The position numbers were made by a program, and so were the translations under genes. A stretch of DNA of 64,000 nucleotides. Origin: a bacterium (GTDB lineage Bacteria; Fidelibacterota; UBA2242). Positions 2,762 through 30,139 of the stretch are shown piece after piece. A model generated the notes under the pieces. That model saw only the letters and a list, made by a program, of their open reading frames with translations. It did not search any database and was not told the origin of the DNA. Position 1 is the first letter of the stretch; every line of letters starts with the position of its first letter. Location: the NCBI GenBank assembly GCA_018824205.1, contig JAHJGX010000253.1:126-64125 (forward strand), written 5' to 3'.

Positions 2762-2923
2762 ATATTACCCTTCTATTTCCGTATTATACCTAACGGTCAA
2801 GGTATGAGATACGGCGATTCACGAAGCGATTCGCTTTTGTTTTCCGACAATCTTCTGAAAAATCGGCAAACTTCAAATTCTTCGGACAGCTCAAGCCGTT
2901 ATCTCCATACCATAGATTTGTTA

Positions 2924-3616
2924 TTATAGTGATTCAACGATTTTATAATAATGGTCTTTTAGTAAATCAATAATTAAATATTCAAAAAATTCTGATAAAA
3001 ATACAGATTCTGTATAAACTTGGTTTTTGAATTCGTTAAACATAAAATTTTTGGTACTCGTAGAACCTAAATCATCAAGGTGCGATAGTGCTATGTCATA
3101 GGGTAAACAAAAAAAAGTATCTATAATTCTTTCTGAGGTACTTATCAAGATATAGTTTTCCTCTTCCTTTAAATTAGTATTATCGATATACTTTTTTACA
3201 ATATCTTCATCAAAATGGAATGATAATTTATTCCTAATTTCTTTTAATATCTTACAGAAATTATCAGGATTTTGATAATCATATTTATTTTTTAGATCAA
3301 TATATTTTTTAGAATTAACCTTTGATAATATTTTTTGAGGTATCTTTTTTTCAATATCTTTTTTGTATGTTTTTATAACTTCATATAAGGTTGATGATAA
3401 TAGGATTAATAAATCTACTGTATTTTTTGTATGGATTAATTTATCTGAAGATTCTTGTTGTAAATTATCTTCATAGATTCGCTTTAAGATAATTCTTAGT
3501 GCATTAATAAGTCTTGATATTTGTATTGATAATAAAAATTCACTTCTCTTAAACTTTAAAAGTTTATCATAATCTTTCACTTTGAGTTTAATATATGTCT
3601 TATCCATAAGAAACAT
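2924..3616 (-). CDS. Hypothetical K-rich alpha-helical protein with a possible HEPN-like Rx5H motif (EIRNKLSFHFDED)
   Basis: 230 aa ORF with very low GC and no signal peptide. An R-N-x4-H motif sits in the C-terminal half. It lies immediately downstream of mod and is separated from it by R82 copy 2. Confidence 0.35.
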   Translation of the reverse strand: MFLMDKTYIKLKVKDYDKLLKFKRSEFLLSIQISRLINALRIILKRIYEDNLQQESSDKLIHTKNTVDLLILLSSTLYEVIKTYKKDIEKKIPQKILSKVNSKKYIDLKNKYDYQNPDNFCKILKEIRNKLSFHFDEDIVKKYIDNTNLKEEENYILISTSERIIDTFFCLPYDIALSHLDDLGSTSTKNFMFNEFKNQVYTESVFLSEFFEYLIIDLLKDHYYKIVESL

Positions 3617-3727: not shown

Positions 3728-5680
3728 TTACTTCAGAATTATAAGAGTCTCATCGCCTGAAATATTTCTGATCTTCATCCGCAACGGCTTTTTTTTATCA
3801 CTTAGGATTTTTCCATCCCAGAATTCTTTAGTTTTATTACCATCGACTATCAGATAACCGTTTTTATCAATCTTTAATTCCGTATCGCTCTTCCAGATAC
3901 CTTCTTTATTTGTGCAGTCCAGACTGATAAGTTCAATGAGTTCCAGACCTTCTTCGCTGATCTCAATAGGAGTATATTTTTTCCCGCTTTCTAATCGCTG
4001 TAATCGTCCCTTTTCGTTGAACTCATGAATCTTCTGGTTCAGGCGATCGCTGATAAACCGGGTGATTTCGATTTCGTACCTGGCATCTTTTTCTTCGATT
4101 CTATATTCAACAATATCATCCACCACAATATCGTGCAGTAAATTCTTTAAATCCTTCAGTTCAACTTCTATGGCAGTCGGATTATTATCCCTGATAAATT
4201 TCTCTATCTCCTTATAATCGTCGACATCCACATAATAGATAATCACTTTCTTGACGTCGATCTCAAGGATTTGCAATTCCTGGTTGATAATCTTATTGAT
4301 CAAAGGTTTATCCAGCACTTTTTCCGTATTATCTATCAGGTTCGGCACATATACCGGAATTGTACCAACTTTCGTGTCTTGAATAACTCCGAACCAGAAT
4401 TTCCCAACGCCCTCGATGTTCTTCTGCAATCCCGGAATCAGCTTTGCCAGTTTGTCCATGGTCTGGGCCGGGTTACGAAAAAGACTAATACCGTCTTTAA
4501 TCTCCACTATCTTAAACTCTGCTCCCGCCTCGATCAGTCGATCACGGGTCGTTTGTATGGAATTGATGCCAACGTCCACATGAATAAATTTCCGACCAAG
4601 ATCATGGGCTACTTTCGCTGTGACTCCACTGCCTCCAAAGAAATCTGCTACTATCATATTTCTATTACTACTTGCTCTAATGATGCGTTTCAATAATTCA
4701 GCTGGTTTTTGTGTTGTGTAACCAACATTTTCGTCTTCCTTAAATGCATATGTACCAATCCCAAAATCGTTATTGAATAATTCAGCAACATTATCCTTAC
4801 CTATCCAAGTATCCCACACAGGTTGCGGCTTTTTTAATCTCGCTTCTTCTATTGCTTCTTCTTTTGCTAAAGAGGAATTATTTGAAATATATGTTTTTAG
4901 AAAATTCTTGCCTCCTCGACTACTTTCTTGTCTTCTTGTGTAATACCATCCTTTAGAATCACGTTGAAGTGAATTCCTAACATAATCTCCATATCCTCTC
5001 CTAGCCGGGAACTCGAAATACGCATCCTTATGTTTATAAAATAAAATTGTTTCATGTGATTTAGGATATAACGCTCCAGCCCCCATAAGGCCACAGACCC
5101 AAATAATTTCCGAAAAATCATATCCTGGAAAAACTTCATCAAGTAAGACTTTTACATAATGAACAATATTCCAATCCAGATGGACGTATATACTGGCATT
5201 ATCACTCATCACGGATTTGATTGCCATCAGGTTTTCATACATCCAGTTCAGGTAATCTTCCTTTTTCCAGATGTCGCCGTACATTTTCTCTTCAAATGCC
5301 TTTAGTTCTTCTATTTCCAGTTCCTGCTTGGCTTCTTTGATCTTTTCGGCCAGTTTCGGATTACGACGGATATAGACTTTCCTGGCGTAATCGGCGCCGC
5401 TGGCAAAAGGCGGATCGATATAGACCAGGTCGACTTTTATATTCTGCTCTTTCAGGTAGGCGCAGGCAGAGACACACTCGCCCCGGATGATGAGATTCTC
5501 CGGATTGTCACCACGGGTCTCGACCGTCTCCAATTCATAATAAGGCATCCCGCGCTGAATTTTGGAAAACACTTTATCATTTTCCCGGTATTGCAGCAGG
5601 CGACGGGTGCGGGTAATATTATTCAGGACCGCCTGTCCTGCAACGGTATTGGGTTCGTAGGGGATATATTTTACCGGCAT
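3728..5680 (-). CDS. mod: Type III restriction-modification Mod subunit (beta-class N6-adenine DNA methyltransferase)
   Basis: DPPF motif IV ([13 protein letters not shown]) precedes the FxGxG motif I ([12 protein letters not shown]), which is the beta-class order. It is 650 aa and lies 3 bp from res. Confidence 0.85.
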
Positions 5681-5683
5681 ATT

Positions 5684-8584
5684 CTAATCCTTTAAAAACG
5701 TATTTATTTTTATATTGACCTTTGCAAGGTTTACATTCAACTCATCCGAATCCGGCAGGTACAAGAAATCAAATTTCTGATAGCCGAATTTTGCTTTGTT
5801 CTGTTTAAGGAAGCTGGTTTCAACGAATTTCTTTTTTCCGACAAAATCAGGTTTATGGGCAAACCCCTCGCCCTTGGTTTCAATGATAAGGGCTTTGTAA
5901 ATCTCTTTACCCTTGCGTTTAATAATCAGAAAATCGGGTGTGTATTCACCGCAATTATTCCAGGAATTCCGCTCTTTGATAAAACAGTTAATTTTAAAAC
6001 CCGTAAGGTTGCGGGCGCCGTTATAATAAACTTCAAGCTTATTTTCGATGAAGTCCTTCAGTGTCAGTATTTTCTCAAGAATATCTTTTTCAAATCCGCT
6101 CTGATGAAAGTCGTATGGAATATAATGAAACGTCCTGTCTTTATTCAAAACAGCCGGGGAAGGCACGGTATGATTTTTAAACTGTTCAAAAGGCATGACC
6201 ATATTACCCAAACCGGATTGAATCAACCCATTCTTATATGCTTCGTATGAAAATTTTAATTTATCATCGTCAATGCTAACGGGCTGTTTGCTCTTATCTA
6301 AATCAAGTATCTTATTCGTATCGTCTTTATCAGGATACAATTTGTCGTTTTTTTCAACATCAAGGAGTTTATCAATAATCAGCAGTTTTGCTTTTTCGGG
6401 GATGACTTCGCTTGTTGTCTGTAGCTCCCGTTTAATACTGAATGCCAGTCTGATCTGAGAATTAACCTGGTAAACATCATAAAGATCATTAAAAAATACC
6501 TGGTTGTCTTTCCGGTAAGTTATTGTTTCAAAAATACTGTTTAATATTTTACGATGCTTGTCTAAATCCGATAAAATAATCTGATGAAAACTCTCTTTGG
6601 AAATATCGAACAACCAATGATTAAAATTAGCAGTTTGCTGACCGGTCTCTCGGATGAATTCGCGGGTTGCCTGGTCGAGATTTTCGATCTCTCCGGTTCT
6701 GATCAGCGCTGTTATTCTATATTTATCGATATTATCCAGCAATTTCTTCAATTTTTTTACCGTATTCGGATTATCTTCCTGATCGATGAAAGTATAATTC
6801 ACCTTCAGCTGGCAGAATTCAATTTCCGGCAGTTGCAGATGTTCCATGCGTGAATGTCTAACTACCATTTCAAGTGCAGGATTTTTTCCCAGACTATTGA
6901 TCTCATCAATACTGGTATCCTGCTCTTTTTTCAGCTGACTGTTCAGCGTTTTTGCATTGAATTCATTCAGCCAGATGACTGCTGTTTCCTCTTTATCTTT
7001 TTCTACCTGACGCAAACAGCGGCAACTGGTTTGGAGAACCATATTTTTCGGGCAATCGCCCTTTTGGGAGAGAATGACTCCGGTCAGACTGCGACAGTCC
7101 CAGCCCTCTTTACCAATCTGAGCCAGCAAAATATAGCGTATGGTCTTTGATGCTTCCATTCCCGGAATATCGAGCGAGTTAAATAACAGTTTATTCTCTT
7201 TCGGGATTTTATGATTTTTATTACCGTCATGATTTTTCAGTATTTCTTCCGGACTAATATTTAGTGTACTTGTTAAAAACGGATGTACCTCCTCTTCCAG
7301 AGGATCAATATTGCCACAATAGATAGCAAGTTTCGCAATAGCGCCGTTTTCATATACTTTATCACCATATATTTCCTGAAAATCTCTGACGCCTTTCTCT
7401 ATTATTTGAAGTTTATTCAGATTCTCGGCAATTTTCACTTTGGGAACTTTTAAAAAGGATTTGATCGCCGATACAAGCGGATAATAATAGACCGTATTGG
7501 TTATTTGAGAAAACTGGATAAACTCATTTTCTGCAATTTGGATTTTATCAGAACTTTCCAAATAAGGCGTCCCGGAAAATCCAAGCACAGTCGTAATATT
7601 GCCGGTCTGATTCCATTTATTTACGACTTGACGCAATTTTATATCGCTGTCCGTGGCATGATGAACCTCATCAATAAAGATAGAAAGGTTTGGGATTTTA
7701 CTAATCGCATTTCTTAATTCATTGGCGTATTCGTCTTTTTCATCTTCGGTTTTTTCAAATAAGTGCTGTTGATCATCCAGATATACCCGGTTCAATATCA
7801 CTTTCTCGGCGTTTACGACAAATACCCGACCAAATGGATCATGCAGACAGGAACTGACTTTTTGAGCATTAGGATTTTCCGCTTTGGTACTTCTCTTCGC
7901 GGATTTCGGTTGATCCAGGACTTCAAATTTGATCAATCGTTTGATGTTGCTCGCCGCCGGTTCCGGAAGCACCCAGGTCGGGTCGAAGTTAGCAATATTT
8001 CTGAGACTCGGCCCGATCGATGATTTTAAACCGGATGGAATCAGTACCAGAAAATTATGTGCAAAGTGCTTGTTTTCAGGTTCATTTTGAGCATAGTACA
8101 GATTCAGATAAATAATCGCCGCCATCAGGAAGGTCTTGCCCGCTCCCATCGGCAGACTCATCAGGTAATCCGGATAATCAATATCATAAAAAATGCTTTT
8201 TATGATCTTATCATAATCCAATTTGTCCGGATTATTGATAATCAGTTTTGCCAGATTTGGCAATATTTCCTTCCCGTTATTTTTTTGTAGTGAAAAGTCA
8301 TATAACGCATGGGCGTTTCTATGGTTTTTCAGATAATCTCTGGCTGTTTCGTTGATATTCAGTTTTGATAAATCGGAACCATTGGTAAAAAAACCTTCGG
8401 AAAACAGTTTCCAGAGCGGTTTATTTTCACCTTTAATTTTTAGAAACAAATAAGTTTCAATGGCTTCAATCTGGGTGTCGCGCAGTTCACCTTTGTTGCG
8501 TATATATTTTATGATTTCTTTTATGGTACAATCTTCTGATTGCAGCCATAGATTCGTTTTGGATTTTATAATCTGATTCAGCAC
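5684..8584 (-). CDS. res: Type III restriction endonuclease Res subunit (SF2 helicase plus C-terminal PD-(D/E)xK nuclease)
   Basis: Walker A MGAGKT, the DEAH-box variant IDEVHH, a TPDF...ETKG nuclease motif at the C-terminus, and a length of 966 aa. Confidence 0.85.
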   Translation of the reverse strand: MLNQIIKSKTNLWLQSEDCTIKEIIKYIRNKGELRDTQIEAIETYLFLKIKGENKPLWKLFSEGFFTNGSDLSKLNINETARDYLKNHRNAHALYDFSLQKNNGKEILPNLAKLIINNPDKLDYDKIIKSIFYDIDYPDYLMSLPMGAGKTFLMAAIIYLNLYYAQNEPENKHFAHNFLVLIPSGLKSSIGPSLRNIANFDPTWVLPEPAASNIKRLIKFEVLDQPKSAKRSTKAENPNAQKVSSCLHDPFGRVFVVNAEKVILNRVYLDDQQHLFEKTEDEKDEYANELRNAISKIPNLSIFIDEVHHATDSDIKLRQVVNKWNQTGNITTVLGFSGTPYLESSDKIQIAENEFIQFSQITNTVYYYPLVSAIKSFLKVPKVKIAENLNKLQIIEKGVRDFQEIYGDKVYENGAIAKLAIYCGNIDPLEEEVHPFLTSTLNISPEEILKNHDGNKNHKIPKENKLLFNSLDIPGMEASKTIRYILLAQIGKEGWDCRSLTGVILSQKGDCPKNMVLQTSCRCLRQVEKDKEETAVIWLNEFNAKTLNSQLKKEQDTSIDEINSLGKNPALEMVVRHSRMEHLQLPEIEFCQLKVNYTFIDQEDNPNTVKKLKKLLDNIDKYRITALIRTGEIENLDQATREFIRETGQQTANFNHWLFDISKESFHQIILSDLDKHRKILNSIFETITYRKDNQVFFNDLYDVYQVNSQIRLAFSIKRELQTTSEVIPEKAKLLIIDKLLDVEKNDKLYPDKDDTNKILDLDKSKQPVSIDDDKLKFSYEAYKNGLIQSGLGNMVMPFEQFKNHTVPSPAVLNKDRTFHYIPYDFHQSGFEKDILEKILTLKDFIENKLEVYYNGARNLTGFKINCFIKERNSWNNCGEYTPDFLIIKRKGKEIYKALIIETKGEGFAHKPDFVGKKKFVETSFLKQNKAKFGYQKFDFLYLPDSDELNVNLAKVNIKINTFLKD

Positions 8585-18504: not shown

Positions 18505-18859
18505 CATGGGCACTTCGGCTAACACACCGAACAAGGTCGCTCACTTTGTAAAAAAGGATCATTGTGGTCATTCAAGGCTTTTGCTCGAAAGGAAAATGAG
18601 TCATTCAAAACTCACAAAGCATTGCATCGTTTGGCGAGACGACAGGGTATACATGTGATTGGTCAACGAGAATAGATTTTTCTATACGGATTCGATCTCT
18701 GTCAATGGAAGACTCTGGATGATGAGGAAGGATGTCTCGGACAAACAACAATTGATTTTTGACTATTTTTGATTGAAAGGAGGTGATCGAGATATGAATG
18801 GAAAAGAATAACGAAAACTTACTGTATTGACAACCTTTCTTAAATAAGGAGAAAATAAC

Positions 18860-19729
18860 ATGAAGAAACTTAGACTTTTAAATCTCAGTGGGAGCATTGC
18901 AGGAACGTTCCTCATTCTGATGTGGATGCTTGGGGGCGGAACTGCTTTGACCCAAACTTTCAATGACCTTGATCGGGAGATATTGGTTTACATACAACCA
19001 TCAATATTGGAATTTCCAGCCGGTGAGAGAGACGCTGTGCTCGTAGAACGCCTTACAATTAAATCCTTACCACTTCACCAAGTATTCAGCCAATTTAATA
19101 TAGATAGACTCGTAAAAGCATTCACTGACTTCAGCGAAACCGACACTATTAGAACTTCCGAAGATGGAAGACTTGTGAGCGTTCCGAGATTCTCGAGAAT
19201 CTTCAGAATTCAAGTGTCCGATAAATCGAAAATAGACTCAGTCATTGCTGCTCTTTCAAGAGTGCCCGGAATATTGTTTGCAGAGAAGAACATGGACGCC
19301 AAGTTGTTTGCTGACCCAACATACACGAACCAGTGGCATTTGAATAACACTGGTCAAGGTGGCGGTACTTCTGGTGTAGATATCAATGCAGTTCCAGGGT
19401 GGGATGTCACAACGGGCAGTTCCAGTATCATTGTTGCGGTAGTTGACGGCGGCGTTGAATCTCATGAAGATTTTCATACCGTCCAGTTGATTCCAGGTTA
19501 TACAGCAAGAACTGGTGGAGACGGATCACCTGCTCCGGGTAATACTAACTGGGCCAGACACGGTCAGTGTGTTGCTGGTATCTCTGCTGCAGCTTTTAAT
19601 ACCTTTGGCGTACGCGGTGTAACTGACAATGTTAAAATTATGCCGATTCGCATAGGCGATGCTGGTGCATCGTTTAGTGATATCGCAGCTGCCATAGATA
19701 CGGCATGGACTCGTGGCGCACCCGACTAA
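18860..19729 (+). pseudogene. Subtilisin-like S8 peptidase truncated after the His block, so the catalytic Ser region is missing
   Basis: Signal peptide, Asp block VAVVDGGV and His block HGQCVAG are present, but there is no GTSMA-type Ser motif. The ORF terminates inside the duplicated R150 copy. Confidence 0.6.
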
Positions 19730-19732
19730 AAA

Positions 19733-19873
19733 CAAACCAGCCAATACGAAGGAAAATATTTTAAGGGCGTTTTGCTTACTCTTTCTCACAAAATTCTCCG
19801 AAACAAAAAAATTACAACAATAACTAATCACCTAAAGTTTAGATGATTTCAATTCAGGATAAAGAATAAATAC
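19733..19873. repeat. R150 copy 2, an ectopic duplicate of the lipoprotein promoter and 5' end that is fused to the 3' end of the S8 gene
   Basis: See 16085-16238. It creates the chimeric antisense ORF 19526-19831, whose N-terminus ENFVRKSKQNALKIFSFVLAGLFLVGCAT mirrors that of the lipoprotein. Confidence 0.8.
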
Positions 19874-19881
19874 GTCTGAAA

Positions 19882-20649
19882 TCAGAACGGTATTGAAAGG
19901 GTAACAAAATAGGGAACAACCGATTTTGAGACATCGCCGGTCGTTTCTTTTTCAGACAACTTTTGTTCCTGATAGTCATAAATCAGCCAGGCAACTCCAC
20001 TGCCCAGCAGACCGCCGGCAATCACATCGGATACAAAGTGACGGTTGTCCGTAATGCGTGAATAACCCACATACGCAGCCAGGGCATGGCTCCCGGCTGC
20101 ATAAATCCATTGTCCGGTTTTATTTCCGCTGCCGGAACCAAAATGATCCAGCACATACAGCGAACTATAACTGGCAATGGCAAAGCTGATCGAGGAATGC
20201 CCCGATGGAAAGGATTTATTCGCATCAAAAATATCTTCTTCCGGATAATTGCTTAAACACGGGCGCTCTCGGCCGATAATGTTTTTTACCACGTTGGTGA
20301 ATAAATAGGTGGCCGATAGTGTCTCGACCAATCCTTTGGAGTGATGGTAGGCGGATGGATTCAGCCAGCCGTCAGTGTTCGGAGTCAGGCCAATTCCCAG
20401 CGCCGTCACACCGGCCGCAGCATAGAGTTTTGAGCTCGAAATAGTGTTTTCATGATAGGGTTTATCGGTTGGGTTTTTGTAAATGGTCCTGCTGCTCCAG
20501 GCCGGTTGGCCATCAAGCCATTTCGCGGTATAAAACACAAGTCCGCCGGCGCCCCACTCCGCCAGTTCCGGAAAAAATCTGATCGGTTCGGCGGCGGATA
20601 CAGTTATTTTAAAACCAATCAGAAGAATCAAAACCCAGATCAATCGCAT
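19882..20649 (-). CDS. PAP2 family (phosphatidic acid phosphatase type 2) secreted phosphatase
   Basis: Motifs KNIIGRERP, PSGHS and SRITDNRHFVSDV, plus a signal peptide. Confidence 0.8.
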   Translation of the reverse strand: MRLIWVLILLIGFKITVSAAEPIRFFPELAEWGAGGLVFYTAKWLDGQPAWSSRTIYKNPTDKPYHENTISSSKLYAAAGVTALGIGLTPNTDGWLNPSAYHHSKGLVETLSATYLFTNVVKNIIGRERPCLSNYPEEDIFDANKSFPSGHSSISFAIASYSSLYVLDHFGSGSGNKTGQWIYAAGSHALAAYVGYSRITDNRHFVSDVIAGGLLGSGVAWLIYDYQEQKLSEKETTGDVSKSVVPYFVTLSIPF

Positions 20650-20656
20650 GAATTTA

Positions 20657-22622: not shown

Positions 22623-23060
22623 ATGAATGCTAAAAAAATGGTTATCTTAATGACTGTGTTTTTAGTTTCTTTTTTTACTGTTTTGGCTCAAACTGAAAAA
22701 AAAGTCGATGATCCATTAGAATGTTTGAAAAAGGATCTTAATCTGACCGAACAGCAGGTTAAACTGATTAAGCCCGTCTGGGAAAAAGCTGCGGCGGATA
22801 TCAAAGCCCTAAAGAGCAAAGCAACCATGGAAAAGCCGGTCGACAAAAATTCGATACAAAAGATCGAGGAAGATCGGGAAGCTCAAACCGTAAATATTCT
22901 TACTCCTGAACAAAAAATGAAGTACAAAGAGATGAAACTGAAAGAGGCTGAAAAACCAAAATGTTCTCAAGCACCGGCACCCGCACCGGAAAAGCTAAAA
23001 GAGGCTGATAAGGCAAAGTGTCCTCAGGCACCCGCACCAGCACCGGAAAAGAAGAAATAA
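22623..23060 (+). CDS. Secreted LTXXQ-motif (Spy/CpxP-like) periplasmic protein with a C-terminal tandem repeat
   Basis: Signal peptide, an LNLTEQQ motif and an AAGGAG SD. A 57 bp tandem duplication encodes KLKEAEKPKCSQAPAPAPEK twice. Confidence 0.5.
   Translation: MNAKKMVILMTVFLVSFFTVLAQTEKKVDDPLECLKKDLNLTEQQVKLIKPVWEKAAADIKALKSKATMEKPVDKNSIQKIEEDREAQTVNILTPEQKMKYKEMKLKEAEKPKCSQAPAPAPEKLKEADKAKCPQAPAPAPEKKK
22945..23058 (+). repeat. Two 57 bp units in tandem within the coding sequence
   Basis: CTGAAAGAGGCTGAAAAACCAAAATGTTCTCAAGCACCGGCACCCGCACCGGAAAAG is followed by a near-copy. Confidence 0.8.
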
Positions 23061-23126: not shown

Positions 23127-23493
23127 TTCGTCGCAATGCTCCCGGCCTGAGGAGAAAAACAAGCTTTTACATTTTCAATAGCTGACGCCTTTGTTCTATG
23201 AGCGAAGTAAAAATTTCTTTCGTTACTTCCGGGAGAAAACTCTTCTTAATAAGTTCATACCACCGATCAAATGAATACGAAAATCTTGCCGGTCAAGTAT
23301 AAACCGGCAATGTTCAAGGATTTTTACTGGAATAAAAGTAAAACATGGAGAATAATCAGATATTTTGCAGGATAATTAGAAATACAGCAATAATTGCTGT
23401 TAAAACAGTATTTATCTTGCTTCGTTATAACTTGGTAATCTGATAAAATAACTTTTCGCAAAGTTGCTTTATACAATGTTTCACCATTAAGTA

Positions 23494-23655
23494 TTTAGGA
23501 GTAGCCCCGGATTTTAATCCGGGGACCTGTTGAAGTGGTTGAGGAGGGGGAGCTACGACTTCTTATCCCCGCATTAAAATGCGGGGTTACCCTTTGCTTT
23601 GGCGGAATTCATCCTCAAATTGAAACATGGGGCTGCTCCTAAATCATCATTCGTT
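23494..23655 (+). repeat. Structured intergenic element, copy A. It has 15-16 bp terminal inverted repeats (ATTTAGGAGTAGCCCC / GGGGCTGCTCCTAAAT) and internal GC-clamped hairpins.
   Basis: Its 5' module is shared with copy C, and its 3' module with copies B and C. Hairpins CCCCGGA-TTTTAA-TCCGGGG and CCCCGCAT-TAAA-ATGCGGGG are present. Confidence 0.8.
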
Positions 23656-23749
23656 AATCCTTGTTATTAGATCAAATCCATACATTTTACTATTGACCTG
23701 TTCCTTGCAATTCATTACATTTACTCATCGTTAACAATGAGTTATTGAA

Positions 23750-24367
23750 ATGAAATGGCAAGACTTCCTCAAACGGTTCGGCAACGAGATTATCTTTGAA
23801 TCCGGCAGTATTTCTGTCGGAGAGGCAAGAAGCCGCAACATTCAGAATAGATTATACCAGTGGGTGATGCAAGGAAAGCTCATTAAACTCCGCAGGGGCA
23901 TTTATACATTTTGCGCACCCTATCGAAAAGAAACGCCATCAAGCGAATTGATTGCAAACCGGCTGGTGTACCCGTCATATATTTCACTGACTTATGCTCT
24001 CTTTTTTTACAATCTCATTCCTGAAGGCGTCTTTACAGTTACAAATGTCACGACGGATCGCGGGCAATTTTTCACCAATCCATTCGGAAGATTCCGTTAT
24101 CATCATATCAGCGCGGATTATTTCTGGGGGTATTATCTCCTGGATCAGGGATCGCATCAAATTTCGATTGCCTACCCCGAAAAAGCCATTCTTGATTTTT
24201 TCTACTTTCTGAAAGGTGATATATCTTCAGACAGAATCACAGAAATGAGGTTTCAAAACCTGGATCAACTTTCGGCAGAAAGGATGATCGATTATCTCCG
24301 AAAGTTTAATCGTCCAAAACTATATCGAATAATGCAGTTAGCGCCCTTTAATAAATTTATCAAATAA
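23750..24367 (+). CDS. abiEi: AbiEi-family antitoxin/transcriptional regulator of a type IV TA abortive-infection system
   Basis: The N-terminal wHTH block QWVMQGKLIKLRRGIYTF is typical of AbiEi_4. It lies 15 bp upstream of the AbiEii gene. Confidence 0.7.
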   Translation: MKWQDFLKRFGNEIIFESGSISVGEARSRNIQNRLYQWVMQGKLIKLRRGIYTFCAPYRKETPSSELIANRLVYPSYISLTYALFFYNLIPEGVFTVTNVTTDRGQFFTNPFGRFRYHHISADYFWGYYLLDQGSHQISIAYPEKAILDFFYFLKGDISSDRITEMRFQNLDQLSAERMIDYLRKFNRPKLYRIMQLAPFNKFIK

Positions 24368-24381
24368 GGTTCGGATTTTAC

Positions 24382-25182
24382 TTGAAACAACATGCTATCG
24401 AGATTGCGAAACACGTTCCAACAGGATTCCATCGACAAAACCTTTTGAGAGAATATCTGCAAGCCGAGATTTTATATGCAATGCAGCGATCGGGCGCTTT
24501 TCTGAATCTCGCTTTTGTCGGCGGCACAGCCCTGCGGTTTTTATATCAACTTCCCCGATATTCTGTTGATCTGGATTTTTCTCTCGAAAACACCCAAAAT
24601 TATGATTTTCCGAAACTTATCAAAAAAATTGAATCCCGATTGATCAAAGCCGGATATAGATTTTCATCAACAGCAAAAATTGATCGCACCGTACAATCCA
24701 TGACAGTAAAATTTGAAGATCTGTTACAGGAAGCCGGTTTGGCTGCTCAATCAAATCAAAAACTATCCATTAAAATTGAAATCGACCGTAATCCTCCCGC
24801 AGGCGCTGACACCGATTCTACGATTATCCGCAAACACTTCTTTTTACATTTGTGGCATCATCATATCTCTTCCCTTTTTTCAGGAAAAATACACGCCCTG
24901 CTGACCCGCAAATGGACAAAAGGCCGAGATATTTACGATTTGATCTGGTATCTCACTTTAACGAATAAAGTCGGTCCCAATTTTACTCATCTGAATAATG
25001 CACTTGTACAGACCAGGTGGAAAGAACAGCCGTTGACGCCGCAAAACTGGAAGATGTTTATCGCTGACTATCTAAAAAAGCTGGAATGGGACAGTGTCGT
25101 CGATGACGTTCGGGATTTCCTGGAGAATCCGGAAGATGTGGATTTGCTGGATCGGAATAATGTGATGAGATTGTTGATATAA
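24382..25182 (+). CDS. abiEii: AbiEii/AbiGii-family nucleotidyltransferase toxin (DUF1814)
   Basis: LAFVGGTALRFLY...RYSVDLDFS is a nucleotidyltransferase motif, and the length is 266 aa. Confidence 0.75.
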   Translation: MKQHAIEIAKHVPTGFHRQNLLREYLQAEILYAMQRSGAFLNLAFVGGTALRFLYQLPRYSVDLDFSLENTQNYDFPKLIKKIESRLIKAGYRFSSTAKIDRTVQSMTVKFEDLLQEAGLAAQSNQKLSIKIEIDRNPPAGADTDSTIIRKHFFLHLWHHHISSLFSGKIHALLTRKWTKGRDIYDLIWYLTLTNKVGPNFTHLNNALVQTRWKEQPLTPQNWKMFIADYLKKLEWDSVVDDVRDFLENPEDVDLLDRNNVMRLLI

Positions 25183-25240
25183 ATATAGTTTCAAACTACG
25201 AATTACACTAATTTTACCAATTAGTTTTGACCAGCGCTGT

Positions 25241-25335
25241 AAACCACTGAAGTGGGTGAGGAAGGTAGTGGTCTGGTTTCTCTTTCCCCATGTTGAAACA
25301 TGGGGCTACTCCTAAATCATCATTCATCCGTTCCG
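25241..25335 (+). repeat. Structured intergenic element, copy B. It is partial and carries only the 3' module.
   Basis: AACCACTGAAGTGGGT hairpin, a purine-rich linker, CCCCATGTT-GAA-ACATGGGG hairpin, and the right TIR GGGGCTACTCCTAAATCATCATTC. Confidence 0.8.
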
Positions 25336-25435
25336 GGAGGGAGCCCCAGAATGAAAGATGGTATTATTTTGCTATTATAAAATCAATGGAGATCAACCAA
25401 ACCTTGCGAAGGTTCGGAACCTTCGCAAGGTTGCT

Positions 25436-27409
25436 TTATTTCTTCCCAGTATCAAAAACAGGAATGTTGGTTGTGCTGGTGCTTTTTGAAGGAACACTGT
25501 AAGACCTCATTGGAGTTAAATTCTCAAGATTGTATAAAACTATAAATATTCTTGCCTCAAAGTCTGAAGGTTTTCCATGACCACCAAATGTTGATGGATT
25601 CATTATATGGTTTGGATAAGTACTATGCTCTATAAACATGAGTTGGTGACCTGTTTCATGTGAAACCATCCGTGTTACATTTTCAATCTCCAAAGGTTCA
25701 TAATCAGGAAGACCTCTTAATCTGACAATTCCTTTTTTTGGCAGAAAATTTTCATAAATCATTGATGAATAAGCTGCGCCAGGGCCGTAATTATATTTCA
25801 TCCTTCCTCCTGTTTCTGGATTTAAATCTACTTCTGTAAAAACCTCAAATGGTTCAATATTCATCTCTTCTGCTGCCTTTTGCACTGCCTTATTCCAGCT
25901 GTCAAAGCCTTTCCAGACGCTGTCAGCATATGCTGCTCCTCTTCCTTCAAAAATGTCATAAGCACCTGTTGTATCCAGATAGGTTCTGTTTAGCCAGCAG
26001 CTTACTGGCAGATTATTCCATCTCCTGATATCAAAAACAGGTGCTGTATCTAATTTAGTCAGGAATTTGAAGAAACTCAACAAATCCTCACCAGTAACCG
26101 GATCAGTATACTGTTCAATCATCTGTGTTACATCTATGTTTGTGTTTCCATTTACTCCCATGTCTTTGTCATAATTATAATAGCCTGCTTTTTTTACTGA
26201 AAATGTTTTCTCTCCTGGGCTTCTTACCTTTAACTCAAAATATCCAGAATCTGAAAATGCAGTTGCAGTGCCAAAAGAAACAACAGCAGAATCAACACCA
26301 AACATATTAGGAACCTGCTTAAGAAAGCCGGAAAGCAAATAAAAACCGGTTTCAGCACCAGAAGAATTGCTTACAGAAGAAACATTGCCCTTTTCATCCA
26401 AAGCTTTAATAGCAGCATAGATTGTGTCAGAGATGTCAGAATAAATATTCATAGTCTGCACTGAACCAGCATTAAAAGGAACAGGTTCGCCATTAACATC
26501 AACTGAAGAATTCCAATTAGAGGAATCAATAGGAACAGAATTAATTCTCACAACATAAGCAGATGCTTTTCCAACATTGCCATCATCTCCAGGAGCTGTC
26601 CACTGAAGAGCAATAGCACCAACATTAGAAGTGGAAACATTCAAGTCATTAACAACAGCAGGAGACACATCATCAAAAAGTGAAGCCAGAACAGTAAACG
26701 CAGTGTCATTCAGAAGATGAATCGTCCGTGAAACAGTTTCAATCTTCGGACTTGTTGAGTCGGTATTCTCAAACGTAAGTTGACATTCATTGGGAAAAGA
26801 ATGAAGTGATTTGGCAAGCGGTTGTTTCAGCGGCTTACCGGCGCTGACATAAGTGGAATGATTACCACCTCCTTCCATACAGAGACACTTGCGGCTGCGC
26901 GTCCCCGCCGGAGTTTGCAGTTGAATGATATAGACGCCGCTGGCGACGGCGCGCCCGGTTTTGCCCGTGCCGTTCCAGTATATTGTATGATTAGCTGCGG
27001 AATACAGCCGATCAGTAAGGGTTACGACATGGCTGCCCGTGATGGAATATATTGAAATTTTCACCGGTAACGGTTTGTCCAATGAAAACGGAATGCAGGT
27101 TCCGGGATTGAAGGGATTGGGATAATTTTGATACAGCTGAAAGCTCCGTGGAACATCGGGCGTATCGTCGACGGACAGCGCCATATTTTGAAAGAAGGCA
27201 ACGCCGTTGCTGTCGGTGATGGCGTTAAGAGTTTCACCGGTCCAGCTGTTCTGCAGGGTTCCCAGGGCATTGTGCACCGGCTGATTGTCGGCTGACAGCG
27301 TTACCTGCACATCGGCGGTCTGTGCCGGCAGGAAGCCGGACGTCAGGACCAGCAGGAACATCAGAATAATGATAAATGCCGGCGGTCCGCGGGACCGGCT
27401 ATGGGACAT
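25436..27409 (-). CDS. Secreted protein with an internal (N-proximal) T9SS CTD-like domain followed by FN3-like and HExxH zincin regions; it is a possible fusion
   Basis: Signal peptide after M at 27409. QNYPNPFNPGTCIPF...ISIYSITGSHV...GVYIIQLQ lies at residues about 140-215. FN3-like blocks follow, and HETGHQLMFIEH is at the C-terminus. Confidence 0.5.
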   Translation of the reverse strand: MSHSRSRGPPAFIIILMFLLVLTSGFLPAQTADVQVTLSADNQPVHNALGTLQNSWTGETLNAITDSNGVAFFQNMALSVDDTPDVPRSFQLYQNYPNPFNPGTCIPFSLDKPLPVKISIYSITGSHVVTLTDRLYSAANHTIYWNGTGKTGRAVASGVYIIQLQTPAGTRSRKCLCMEGGGNHSTYVSAGKPLKQPLAKSLHSFPNECQLTFENTDSTSPKIETVSRTIHLLNDTAFTVLASLFDDVSPAVVNDLNVSTSNVGAIALQWTAPGDDGNVGKASAYVVRINSVPIDSSNWNSSVDVNGEPVPFNAGSVQTMNIYSDISDTIYAAIKALDEKGNVSSVSNSSGAETGFYLLSGFLKQVPNMFGVDSAVVSFGTATAFSDSGYFELKVRSPGEKTFSVKKAGYYNYDKDMGVNGNTNIDVTQMIEQYTDPVTGEDLLSFFKFLTKLDTAPVFDIRRWNNLPVSCWLNRTYLDTTGAYDIFEGRGAAYADSVWKGFDSWNKAVQKAAEEMNIEPFEVFTEVDLNPETGGRMKYNYGPGAAYSSMIYENFLPKKGIVRLRGLPDYEPLEIENVTRMVSHETGHQLMFIEHSTYPNHIMNPSTFGGHGKPSDFEARIFIVLYNLENLTPMRSYSVPSKSTSTTNIPVFDTGKK

Positions 27410-27622
27410 CAGCGGGATTTTTGAATGGCGAACGCGGAGGCGTTGTTTCACGCGGGGCAGAGCATACCAGCGTCCCTTGCCGTTCAGCAAATCCAGGTTG
27501 GGCATCTCCCGCAGGGATTCCCATACTACTGCTTTCAGATTGCTTTCGAGGTTACCGGCCATAATCTGTTATTATAGCCGATAAAATCATTAGTTTCAAT
27601 GAATTTATCACACAATTGAATC

Positions 27623-27770
27623 TTTAGGAGTAGCCCCGGATTTTAATCCGGGGACCTGCCATCAACTCTACACGCCTGAACCGTTTCAACGGTTTACAAA
27701 AAACCACTGAAGTGGTTGAGGAGGGGGTGGCATGGTTTCTCATTCCCCGTGTTGAAACATGGGGCTACTC
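27623..27770 (+). repeat. Structured intergenic element, copy C. It is followed by two further hairpins (to about 27835).
   Basis: Same 5' module as copy A, an extra AACCGTT-TCA-ACGGTT hairpin, AACCACT-GA-AGTGGTT, and CCCCGTGTT-GAA-ACATGGGG, which carries a G-U wobble relative to copy B. Confidence 0.8.
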
Positions 27771-27807
27771 TTACCTCAGACGCCCTTGTCTGAGGGATTT
27801 ACAACAA

Positions 27808-27993
27808 TCAAGAGTGATTGTTGTACGTTTCCAACTCATCACAATCCGCACCGCAACTGTCTTTCATCAGGCAGGAATCACAGACCGATTGCGGCTTTTT
27901 TACTGTTTTATAAAACCGTTTAAACAGCGCAATTACACTGGCAATAACCACAACTGCAACAATAATAATTTGCCAGCTCACTTTACCCTCCAA
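27808..27993 (-). CDS. FeoB-associated Cys-rich small membrane protein
   Basis: 61 aa with one TM helix and a C-terminal CDSCLMKDSCGADC cluster. It lies immediately downstream of feoB and overlaps it. Confidence 0.6.
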   Translation of the reverse strand: MEGKVSWQIIIVAVVVIASVIALFKRFYKTVKKPQSVCDSCLMKDSCGADCDELETYNNHS

Positions 27994-30139
27994 ATCCCAG
28001 CAAACTGCCTATTTGGTAGATTCCAACAGCCAAAACAAATGCTACCAGCAACGTGTAACCCGCCTGAAACGCCGGCCACTTCCAGGAACCCAATTCCTTT
28101 TTGACCATAGCCAATGTTGCCAGACAGGGAATATAGACCATAATAAATATCATCAGAGCAAGCGCTATAAGCGGTGAATATGCGGGATCCTGACTTAATT
28201 TATCCTTTACAAAAAAATCGACATGCGCCTGACTATCGGACGCATCATAGTCCATGCCGTAGAGAATTCCCAGCGTTGAAATAATCACCTCTTTGGCGGC
28301 GACCCCGGCCACCAGACTAACACCGATTTTCCAATCAAAACCGGCCCATTTCAGAATCGGTTCAAGTCCTTTACCGAGCCGGCCACCAAAACTATATTCT
28401 ACAGATGGAGTATTATTTCTATAAACATCCACCCCTTCCGTCGGCGGTTTTGGGTAGGAAAGTAAAAACCAGACTACGATCGAAGCCGCCAGAATAACAG
28501 TGCCGGCTTTTTTAATATATTCTGACGATTTCTCCCACATGTGAATTATCACATTCTTGAACAATGGGCGGCGGTAAGGCGGTAGTTCCATCACAAAGGG
28601 AGTCTGTTCACCGCGAAACAGCGATCTCTTGAATATCAGCGCCAGTACAAAGGCCATTAGCCATCCAAAGAGCCAGACATTCCAGAAAATCAGCGTCGAA
28701 TTTTCCGGGAAAAATGCCGCCACCAGCATCGCTACGACCGGCGCTTTAGCCCCGCACATCATCAGCGGCGACACCAGAATCGTCACGATCCGGTCTTTCC
28801 GATTGGCCAGCACGCGAGCGCTCATAATTCCCGGTACAGCGCAGCCGGTGGATATCATAAATGGAATAAAACTGCGGCCGTGCAGACCAAAAATATGCAA
28901 AAACTTATCCATGACAAAGGCAGCCCGGGACATGTAGCCGGTATCTTCCAAAAATGAAAGTCCCATAAACAGTAATATTACCAGCGGCAAAAAGGTCAGA
29001 ACGCCGCCAACCCCGTTAATTATCCCATTGGTCAACAGATCCTGAAGCACACCGACTGGCATTATGTCCGTTAATAATTTCGAAAGCTGTCCGCATCCCG
29101 CAGAGATTCCGTCGGAAAGCGGGTTTCCCAGTGCGAATGTAATTTGATAAATAACAAACATGACTGCAAAAAAGATCGGTATTCCCAGGTAGCGGTTGAG
29201 CACAATCCGATCAATCTGTTCAGTAATATCAATAACTTTTCTCTTTCGGAATTGTATTACCGTCTCTTTTATTGCTCCGTGAATATAGGCATAGCGCTGT
29301 TCGCCGATTACCACTTCGGAATCTTCACTGTAATGTTTCTCCAGCCACTGTCGCCATTCGGTTGTAACGCTGAAAACCATATCCGCAAACTGATGCTCGT
29401 TCTTAATTTTTCGCTCGGCGTCCCGGTCTTTTTCCAGTAATTTAATCGCAATCCAGTGCATGGAGTAACGCTGTTTAAATTTGTCATCCAACTCCAGTGT
29501 ATCAATGACCGCATTATGAGCTAGTTCCACGATCTTCCCATAATTCAAATGCCGCTTGTTGGATTCCAGTTCGCCACCGGCAACCTTTATTGCCACATCC
29601 AGCAATAAATCAATCCCGGCGCCTGTATTTCCAACCGTTTTAACAAAAGGAATCCCTAAAATTGTGGACAGCTGTTCGCCGTTAATATGAATTCCCTTTT
29701 CTTCAGCCTCGTCAGTCATATTTAAAGCACCGACAATCGGTACTCCCAACTCCTGAAACTGCAGCAGAAGATACAGGTGCCGATCCAGATTGGAGGAATC
29801 CAGAACATCAACGATAACATCGGGCTTTTCGTTCAATACAAAATCCCTGGAGACAATCTCTTCGATTGAGTAGGCGCTCAGGCTGTAGGTTCCCGGCAAA
29901 TCTATAAATTCAATATTCTTTCCGTCAATACTAATCATCCCGGACTTTTTTTCCACCGTTACACCGGGATAATTCCCGATATGCTGGCGCTGCCCGGTCA
30001 GAGCATTAAATATACTGGTCTTCCCGGAATTTGGATTACCTGCCAGGGCAATTCTGATAATGTTCTTATTTTCAGGATGATTACCGCGTCCAAAGCGCCG
30101 ACGCATCCGGCGCGGAGCCTGGGGGCCGGGTGCATTCAT
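27983..30139 (-). CDS. feoB: Ferrous iron transporter FeoB
   Basis: G-protein motif GNPNSGKTSIFNALTG and a polytopic membrane domain. The start codon overlaps the feoA stop. The true start is possibly the internal M12. Confidence 0.9.
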   Translation of the reverse strand: MNAPGPQAPRRMRRRFGRGNHPENKNIIRIALAGNPNSGKTSIFNALTGQRQHIGNYPGVTVEKKSGMISIDGKNIEFIDLPGTYSLSAYSIEEIVSRDFVLNEKPDVIVDVLDSSNLDRHLYLLLQFQELGVPIVGALNMTDEAEEKGIHINGEQLSTILGIPFVKTVGNTGAGIDLLLDVAIKVAGGELESNKRHLNYGKIVELAHNAVIDTLELDDKFKQRYSMHWIAIKLLEKDRDAERKIKNEHQFADMVFSVTTEWRQWLEKHYSEDSEVVIGEQRYAYIHGAIKETVIQFRKRKVIDITEQIDRIVLNRYLGIPIFFAVMFVIYQITFALGNPLSDGISAGCGQLSKLLTDIMPVGVLQDLLTNGIINGVGGVLTFLPLVILLFMGLSFLEDTGYMSRAAFVMDKFLHIFGLHGRSFIPFMISTGCAVPGIMSARVLANRKDRIVTILVSPLMMCGAKAPVVAMLVAAFFPENSTLIFWNVWLFGWLMAFVLALIFKRSLFRGEQTPFVMELPPYRRPLFKNVIIHMWEKSSEYIKKAGTVILAASIVVWFLLSYPKPPTEGVDVYRNNTPSVEYSFGGRLGKGLEPILKWAGFDWKIGVSLVAGVAAKEVIISTLGILYGMDYDASDSQAHVDFFVKDKLSQDPAYSPLIALALMIFIMVYIPCLATLAMVKKELGSWKWPAFQAGYTLLVAFVLAVGIYQIGSLLGFGG

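Follow-up and report, generated by a model that had tools for sequence, protein, structure and literature searches.

What kind of element is formed by three hairpin-rich intergenic sequences, A, B and C, that bracket an AbiE toxin-antitoxin module and the gene of a secreted zincin-like protein is the question raised by contig JAHJGX010000253.1 (GenBank assembly GCA_018824205.1), of which a stretch of 64,000 nucleotides (the window) was analysed. A preliminary description of this sequence had compared the three copies with MITE (miniature transposable element with inverted repeats), BOX or Correia elements and with a structured regulatory RNA, had recognised no known family, and had suggested that they may act as recombination sites. 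In the reading that we consider probable, the three copies are GTAG-tagged repetitive extragenic palindromes (REPs) in a local cluster, in which C is a REPIN (REP doublet forming a hairpin), A a trimer resembling a bacterial interspersed mosaic element (BIME) and B a singleton.

Direct reading of positions 23300-28000 placed all three copies on the + strand where they had been described; as re-read, they extend over 23493-23655 (A), 25241-25335 (B) and 27622-27776 (C). The start motif attributed to A and C was present in both, and the shared start proved not to be exact: A begins with ATTTAGGAGTAGCCCC (23493-23508), one base before the start first given, and C with CTTTAGGAGTAGCCCC (27622-27637), the first base of which is unlike that of A (CTTTAGG vs ATTTAGG). 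The common end GGGGCT(A/G)CTCC was recovered in A (GGGGCTGCTCC) and B (GGGGCTACTCC); the end of C (GGGGCTACTCTT, with the terminus reading ...CTACTCTT) departs from the final CTCC. All hairpins were found as described: CCCCGGATTTTAATCCGGGG at 23505-23524 (A) and 27634-27653 (C), CCCCGCATTAAAATGCGGGG at 23567-23586 (A), CCCCATGTTGAAACATGGGG at 25286-25305 (B), CCCCGTGTTGAAACATGGGG with one G.T pair at 27745-27764 (C), and the h2 hairpin AAACCACTGAAGTGGTT at 27701-27717 (C), of which B has a version with one mismatch and A retains the 3' half only. The extra hairpin of copy C was located at 27678-27697, and the repeat around C reaches beyond the end first assigned to it, to another hairpin at 27774-27796. 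The 16-mer end motif gave five matches (0.33 expected; 0/100 shuffles), and the 27-mer and 26-mer modules gave no matches in shuffles. No similar element was found elsewhere in the window, and all units lie between open reading frames (ORFs). A leader peptide, considered for the GAGGAGG...ATG of copy C, was ruled out, A and B being without the ATG.

The terminal inverted repeat and the GC-clamped hairpin, at first described as separate parts, are both present, yet together they make up one 26-nt unit, GAGTAG-CCCC-N3-TTTYAA-N3-GGGG, which consists of a GAGTAG foot, a 7-bp stem starting with CCCC and a TTTYAA loop. The left hairpin (h1) and the reverse complement of the right-arm hairpin (h3b) align as GAGTAGCCCC-NNN-TTTYAAY-NN-GGGG, and their stems are compensated: the left hairpin on the + strand has GGA/TCC, the right hairpin on the - strand ATG/CAT. 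The structure-preserving stem substitutions noticed at first reading are supported. A covariance model of the unit (R1), run on the 64-kb window with filters off, found only six units, four with 42-46 bits, one with 26.6 bits and one with 13.2 bits; four of the six have GTAG feet (intact), one has GTAA and one GCAG (decayed).

Copy C starts with the intact unit C-left (27622-27657, + strand; same sequence as A-left; 46.0 bits) and ends with the intact unit C-right (27741-27776, - strand; GAGTAG foot, CCCCATG-TTTCAA-CACGGGG at 27745-27764; 42.1 bits). The spacer of this doublet (27658-27740, + strand) holds hairpin h4 (27678-27697), h2 (27701-27717) and a GAGG box, and its left half pairs with its right half in the minimum-energy fold. 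An outer hairpin, CCTCAGAC-N6-GTCTGAGG (27774-27796, no strand assigned), is separated by 3 nt from the GAGTAG foot of C-right, on its outer side, and is the counterpart of the second hairpin found in most relatives. A module of about 75 nt, made up of the h2 hairpin, a GAGG-rich linker and a REP, occurs in A, B and C, twice in the related contig L001 and once in the related contig L047. In copy C, the left arm (27623-27697) matches this right-arm unit in reverse complement (nhmmer E = 1e-8); C is therefore a genuine inverted doublet, a REPIN or head-to-head dimer of two such modules whose GTAG feet lie on the outside.

Copy A is a BIME-like trimer of a left REP, an inverted REP of a second subtype and a decayed third unit. 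The intact unit A-left (23493-23528, + strand; 45.8 bits, E = 5e-14) has its GAGTAG foot at 23499-23504 and the hairpin CCCCGGA-TTTTAA-TCCGGGG at 23505-23524; it is followed by a linker module (23531-23550, + strand), recognised from repeat families D3/D4 and the unit alignment, with the 3' half of h2 and a GAGGAGGGGG box. The inverted unit A-mid (23563-23598, - strand; 26.6 bits, E = 3e-7) has a GTAA foot and the hairpin CCCCGCAT-TTTA-ATGCGGGG (23567-23586), a subtype that is also present in L001 and L047. Only the 3' stem half is left of the decayed unit A-right (23609-23644, - strand; GCAG foot; 13.2 bits), which runs on with the tail CTCCTAAATCATCATTC to 23652. Copy B is a lone right arm, in which h2 (25241-25261, + strand; AAACCAC-TGAA-GTGGGT and a GAGG box) precedes the intact unit B-right (25282-25317, - strand, with the tail common to A-right reaching 25325; GAGTAG foot, CCCCATG-TTTCAA-CATGGGG at 25286-25305; 45.4 bits, E = 7e-14). 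A and C each fold as one long imperfect hairpin (RNA z = -5.5 and DNA z = -3.2 for A; RNA z = -6.8 and DNA z = -4.6 for C); the fold of B alone is unexceptional (z = -1.6).

GTAG-tagged REPs are defined as palindromes of 20-40 nt with GT[AG]G at the foot and with subfamilies that differ by complementary stem changes; they are arranged as singletons, as head-to-head or tail-to-tail dimers with spacers of 20-100 bp that are often structured, and as clusters (Di Nocera 2013, PMC3733652; Quentin 2018, PMC6006769). Published examples that are very similar include the Pseudomonas mendocina REP GTAGCCCGGATGCAATCCGGG (Nunvar 2010, PMC2817692), the Ignavibacterium album and Emticicia REPs GTAGGACAGGATTCATCCTGTC and GTAGGACAGGTTTTCAACCTGTC with TTCA/TTTTCAA loops (Quentin 2018 supplement, PMC6006769) and the REPs of subclass 2.4, with 3 G-C pairs at the foot (Quentin 2018, PMC6006769). 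The window units have stems of 7-9 bp, show in four of six cases a 20-nt palindrome with GTAG directly at its foot, are extragenic, and form inverted dimers or clusters (the C doublet, the A trimer and about 12 dimer loci in relatives). They therefore agree with the published definition of GTAG-tagged REPs, and about ten of their cross-phylum relatives match Rfam family RF01687, so that the earlier view that no known family applied was not borne out. The likeness to GTAG-tagged REPs, REPINs and BIMEs (Nunvar 2010; Bertels & Rainey 2011; Di Nocera 2013; Quentin 2018) covers the GT[AG]G at the foot of a GC-footed palindrome of 20-26 nt, subfamilies arising by compensatory stem changes, occurrence as singletons, trimers and tandem clusters, and a position between genes, mostly after them; as in REPINs, the inverted dimers have their GTAG feet outside and a structured spacer of 20-100+ nt, and form one long hairpin. 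In sequence, the window unit is close to the P. mendocina REP. A literature search by sequence strings returned primers only.

Further copies were found elsewhere with a degenerate pattern of the unit, which matched 36 units at 35 loci in metagenome-assembled genomes (MAGs) of at least eight phyla, among them Planctomycetota, Myxococcota, Chlamydiota, Bacteroidota, Armatimonadota, Alphaproteobacteria and Hydrogenedentota; viral contigs gave 0 matches. At least 12 copies were present in one Planctomycetota MAG, five in another MAG and five in a Polyangium MAG; single matches came from Pirellulales, Phycisphaera, Parachlamydiaceae, Cytophagaceae, Prolixibacteraceae, Armatimonadota, Alphaproteobacteria and Hydrogenedentota, and many matches stood at contig ends. 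The pattern fixed GAGTAG, CCCC, the loop and GGGG and left three stem pairs free; these free positions were paired in 106/108 cells, with 4, 4 and 2 pair types, and for the stem as kept in the 36 units the share of paired cells is 99.2%. The covariation score was 0.389 vs 0.108 in shuffles (0/500), and sliding the partners collapsed the pairing. The stem structure is under selection. At about 12 loci the unit has a partner in inverted orientation at a distance of 100-240 nt, often of another stem subtype, head-to-head in most genomes and tail-to-tail in Polyangium; these partner arms, which the pattern did not constrain, carry GTAG or ATAG feet. Full elements such as that of L041 are long palindromes with two hairpins per arm, and the 30 nt outside the foot fold at dG <= -4 kcal/mol in 23 of the 36 arms (control mean -2.7). 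No protein family recurs beside the units at the 35 loci. On the Polyangium contig L043, an array of 14 tRNA genes (167-2347) directly adjoins a REP unit.

Several observations weigh against the assignment to REPs. Classical REPs number in the hundreds (>100 per genome), whereas copy number in the window lineage appears low: the 64 kb hold one cluster, a relative has one unit in 22 kb, and two other loci of 22 kb have none. With a strict 22-mer of the right (h3b) arm, GTDB species representatives gave 0 matches, and the sole true match in the JGI metagenome collection was L001 (the matches in L002 and L003 were rejected as chance, since on the opposite strand they read AGGAG-N7-ATG, a ribosome-binding site and start codon). 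Unlike in classical REPs, the CCCC foot and the TTTYAA loop of 6 nt are kept across many phyla; since these bases were fixed in the pattern together with GAGTAG and GGGG, their conservation among the 36 units is not independent evidence, which is provided by the stems, partner arms and flanks only. Unlike with classical REPs, a cognate RAYT (REP-associated tyrosine transposase) was not found for the window family: a hidden Markov model (HMM) built from 11 published RAYT/TIRYT sequences, tblastn and Pfam detected no RAYT/Y1 transposase, either in the window or in related and REP-bearing loci that amount to about 0.5 Mb. The RAYT loci of Planctomycetes (homologues of R. baltica RAYT RB11751) yielded three REPtrons, with GTAG REP dimers of other families. 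Finally, no empty site was seen for any window copy among the same-species contigs, and mobility at the locus is inferred. Two further departures from the classical picture are the second small hairpin that many relatives carry 3-9 nt outside the foot, and the host, an uncultured lineage of the FCB (Fibrobacteres-Chlorobi-Bacteroidetes) group, a group for which GTAG REPs have been reported only from a few Bacteroidota and Ignavibacterium.

The comparison with MITE, BOX and Correia elements was sound as far as it described a modular family of small palindromic intergenic repeats: these too are small, non-coding, modular and intergenic, with inverted ends and strong hairpin potential. Unlike in MITEs, the "terminal inverted repeat" is here a self-folding hairpin with a tetranucleotide foot and not the duplex end of a DDE transposon, and the window elements have no sequence similarity to BOX or Correia elements. 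Descent as a MITE from a DDE transposon was rejected, with no target-site duplication at A, C or L041 and no transposase ORF recurring beside the copies.

By analogy with characterised REP families, the units would be non-autonomous DNA elements. A single-copy HUH/Y1 enzyme (RAYT/TnpA-REP), with its gene elsewhere in the genome, would bind the hairpin in single-stranded DNA and cut it, with the tetranucleotide at the foot of the stem serving as a guide; slow intragenomic spread would be followed by persistence and then by decay and rearrangement. Compensatory stem changes may be kept because the hairpin and not its sequence is recognised. Mobilisation by a RAYT is, on this analogy, presumed. 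At the present locus, the units are likely to be passive passengers, to provide stable hairpins at which transcripts end (B between convergent genes, C after the feoB operon) and to supply short homologies for the gain or loss of DNA.

A structured RNA, either a small RNA (sRNA) like Acido-Lenti-1 or a 5' or 3' untranslated region that regulates AbiE, the zincin gene or feoB through RNA hairpins, would lead one to expect the strong covariation and the very stable RNA folds of A and C; the + strand tolerates the one G.T pair of C-right, about 100 nt separate A from abiEi downstream of it, and relatives are curated in Rfam as "Gene; sRNA". Ten sites in relatives score 38.6-55.5 bits on RF01687 (Acido-Lenti-1), for which the gathering score is 37: L013 293-338, L026 2251-2296, L012 6495-6540, L046 1443-1488, L031 5926-5971, L033 4568-4613, L045 3379-3425, L014 3813-3858, L039 6983-7028 and L034 1861-1906. 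The window copies themselves reach the gathering threshold of no Rfam family and give only noise at E <= 10. They fail membership of RF01687 because the second hairpin is absent or differently shaped: hairpin 2 at the modelled spacing is missing, and the only outer hairpin, that of C-right, has 8 bp and a 6-nt loop where RF01687 has 5 bp and a 3-nt loop.

The RF01687 matches lie on the strand opposite to the GTAG foot, and hairpin 1, CUA, the 12-nt linker and hairpin 2 of the model are the reverse complement of outer hairpin, linker, (G/A)TAG and REP hairpin; RF01687 thus models the opposite strand and is called an sRNA gene. In being multi-copy within genomes and forming tandem arrays it resembles the window family: single genomes (Lentisphaera araneosa, Koribacter versatilis) contribute dozens of copies to its seed, with tandem arrays at 192-nt spacing, and seed sequences from R. 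baltica and soil share the GGGUUGAAACCC core of the window family. The original description (Weinberg 2010) goes no further than covariation, a missing link to genes and group II introns that are sometimes nearby; an intron of this kind (Rfam D1-D4, D5/6) was likewise observed at 5450-6330 of the Planctomycetota contig L014, about 1.5 kb from its REPIN.

Against an RNA, units occupy both strands within one element; relative to genes they lie upstream, downstream or antisense, and neither here nor at 35 other loci is any gene consistently linked to them; the spacers differ, and only the hairpin and foot are conserved. Wobble pairs give no strand, as the units show two A.C and one G.T on the GTAG strand, and many RF01687 seeds have, on the Rfam strand, an A.C mismatch, which turns into G.U when the other strand is read. 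Tandem arrays and inverted dimers in multiple copies are what DNA repeats typically show, and the assignment of RF01687 as an sRNA is itself a prediction. We consider the structured RNA, one of the two forms proposed in the preliminary description, quite unlikely; RF01687 may, to judge from its seed sequences, be a REP-type DNA repeat more than an sRNA gene.

Eleven same-species contigs (99.3-100% identity) have an identical arrangement, and many begin or end at A, B or C. Contig ends at these places are expected because repeats break assemblies, and MAGs of the lineage probably under-represent the repeats. Among the independent assemblies, L007, L008-L011, L055 and L057 start at 23500 (A) or end at 25229-25369 (B) or 27652 (C). 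In L001, a relative with 92-95% identity, copy A is exactly kept, and a 1-kb tract (23190-24209) that covers copy A and most of abiEi is 100% identical, with 90-95% identity elsewhere; as a sequence pattern, this tract indicates a recent recombination between the lineages. At the place of B, L001 carries a tandem pair of 186-nt units (h3a subtype), and its zincin gene is far more diverged (73% identity). At another locus within the window's own lineage (L047-49, 88% FeoB identity), a REP and linker unit stands beside a TetR gene and a HipBA module, and L050 has a decayed unit copy at the position of the L047 unit, next to the TetR gene. In L047, the HTH-HipB/HipA toxin-antitoxin module (19162-20650) adjoins the REP unit at 18790-18825, a second toxin-antitoxin neighbour of the repeat.

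These comparisons bear on the possibility that the copies arose by local segmental duplication and decay of one ancestral REP doublet and are now immobile, functionless scars at a rearrangement-prone locus. The single cluster in 64 kb, the h3b arm that is essentially unique in public metagenomes, the decay of one window unit (13 bits) and of the L050 copy, the arrangement common to all strains of the species, and the 1-kb tract as a trace of recent homologous exchange across A all fit such an origin. It is compatible with the units being REPs and bears only on present activity. Four of the units, however, remain intact: their GAGTAG foot is exact and their stems are perfect or have wobble pairs only, although the surroundings differ from L001 by 5-8%. 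Related units also occur at unrelated loci in relatives; scars alone are an unlikely account.

The suggestion that the copies may act as recombination sites is plausible as a hypothesis: direct repeats of REP arms bracket both gene blocks, and neither a recombinase nor an empty site was found at the locus. A direct repeat of 33 nt (23620-23652 vs 25293-25325, 32/33 identical) flanks AbiE, and one of 48 nt (23482-23529 vs 27611-27658, 92% identical, repeat family D2), which comprises A-left or C-left with 12 nt upstream, flanks AbiE, B and the zincin gene. A polymorphism at another locus is informative here. Two Pirellulales contigs of about 90% identity, L022 and L042, are distinguished by a segment of 2563 nt, located between NUDIX and ArsR genes, that encodes an M56/BlaR1-like peptidase; L022 has one REPIN (4022-4189), and L042 has two direct copies around the insert (2856-3043 and 5607-5775), which are 79% identical over 166 nt with a near-identical core of about 54 nt. 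The single REPIN of L022 is a hybrid of both L042 copies, with the switch within the shared arm of about 54 nt. This gives some support to gain or loss by exchange between REPINs, homologous and enzyme-mediated joining not being distinguished.

Sites of a site-specific recombinase (integron attC-like or dif/Xer-like, with 7-bp inverted arms and a 6-nt spacer) that inserted AbiE and zincin cassettes would also place copies around two accessory gene blocks, put C at the synteny breakpoint after the feoB operon, lower the GC content of the island (0.30-0.43 vs 0.45-0.53), and accommodate the replaced or diverged B region and zincin gene of L001 as well as the one or two REPINs of L022 and L042. 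Such sites are nevertheless very improbable. No integrase or tyrosine or serine recombinase was found in the 64-kb window (nor a transposase or Y1/HUH gene), and 0.5 Mb of other loci likewise yielded no integrase or transposase; the arms covary between genomes with the loop and foot fixed, which fits recognition of a hairpin and not of a duplex half-site; the R''/R' boxes of attC are missing; the two "cassettes" are oppositely oriented, and one is 2.1 kb long; and the 79% identity over 166 nt and the core of about 54 nt of the L042 copies suit homologous exchange between dispersed repeats. Readings of the copies as attC, dif or IS200/IS605 ends were rejected, with no recombinase or transposase, arms inverted and not co-oriented, and stems that covary. 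Within the preferred REP reading, it is possible, if doubtful, that REP and REPIN arms are joints for the gain and loss of accessory genes, through REPIN exchange or an HUH enzyme; that the AbiE, zincin and M56-peptidase genes are "REPIN-bracketed cassettes", recurrent in several phyla; and that Acido-Lenti-1 is the opposite strand of REP arms.

The genes around the copies are as follows. An LTXXQ-like ORF (22623-23060, + strand), for which no homologue was found outside the species, precedes copy A. The type IV toxin-antitoxin pair AbiEi (23750-24367) and AbiEii (24382-25182), both on the + strand, lies between A and B (Pfam AbiEii 4e-23; NCBIfam AbiEi weak, 29 bits). Between B and C, on the - strand, is the gene of the 708-amino-acid (aa) secreted zincin-like protein (25436-27562), with an HETGH motif at residue 635, the sole sign of a peptidase, and an Ig-like domain resembling those of type IX secretion system sorting (FlgD-Ig-like) at residues 147-225, not at the C terminus. 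This ORF is a mosaic in composition (GC 0.50-0.58 in the 5' third, 26.7-27.6 kb; 0.35-0.43 in the remainder), and gene callers give it a later start (641-657 aa). A Cys-rich small membrane ORF of 61 aa (27808-27993, - strand), downstream of feoB and 63% identical to the post-feoB ORF of L047, is followed in gene order by FeoB, FeoA and a DtxR-like repressor. The synteny MetH, DtxR, FeoA, FeoB and small ORF is kept in relatives with 82-88% FeoB identity and stops directly after the small ORF; C sits exactly at this end, just after the 61-aa ORF. The GC content of 21.6-26.7 kb is below that of the flanks, and the closest named FeoB homologues belong to Fidelibacterota (77% identity), followed by KSB1.

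Two further features of the window were observed. A second defence locus, of type III restriction-modification (3728-8584, - strand), consists of an N6_N4 DNA methylase followed by a ResIII helicase/nuclease. A second palindrome family is represented by a perfect 33-nt double hairpin (25400-25432) with AACCTTSSGAAGGTT twice, just past the stop of the 708-aa ORF; an 18-nt remnant lies upstream of copy A (23455-23472), and a near-identical double hairpin occurs in L050 (18980-19012; 82% FeoB identity).

With this assignment, GTAG-tagged REPs are placed in a poorly sampled, uncultured FCB-group bacterium near Fidelibacterota, and a candidate "new structured RNA or new mobile element" is struck off. 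A curated Rfam family is linked to REP-type DNA repeats, which bears on the annotation of RF01687. That one REP hairpin type, with a CCCC foot and a TTTYAA loop, recurs in phyla ranging from Planctomycetota to Chlamydiota and Bacteroidota, its stems covarying freely, suggests a mode of enzyme recognition that is widely shared. A toxin-antitoxin module bracketed by REP arms, together with an independent polymorphism of one vs two REPINs, provides a testable case of REP-mediated gene turnover; if it holds true, REPIN-bracketed cassettes would be a recurrent build of small defence and accessory islets.

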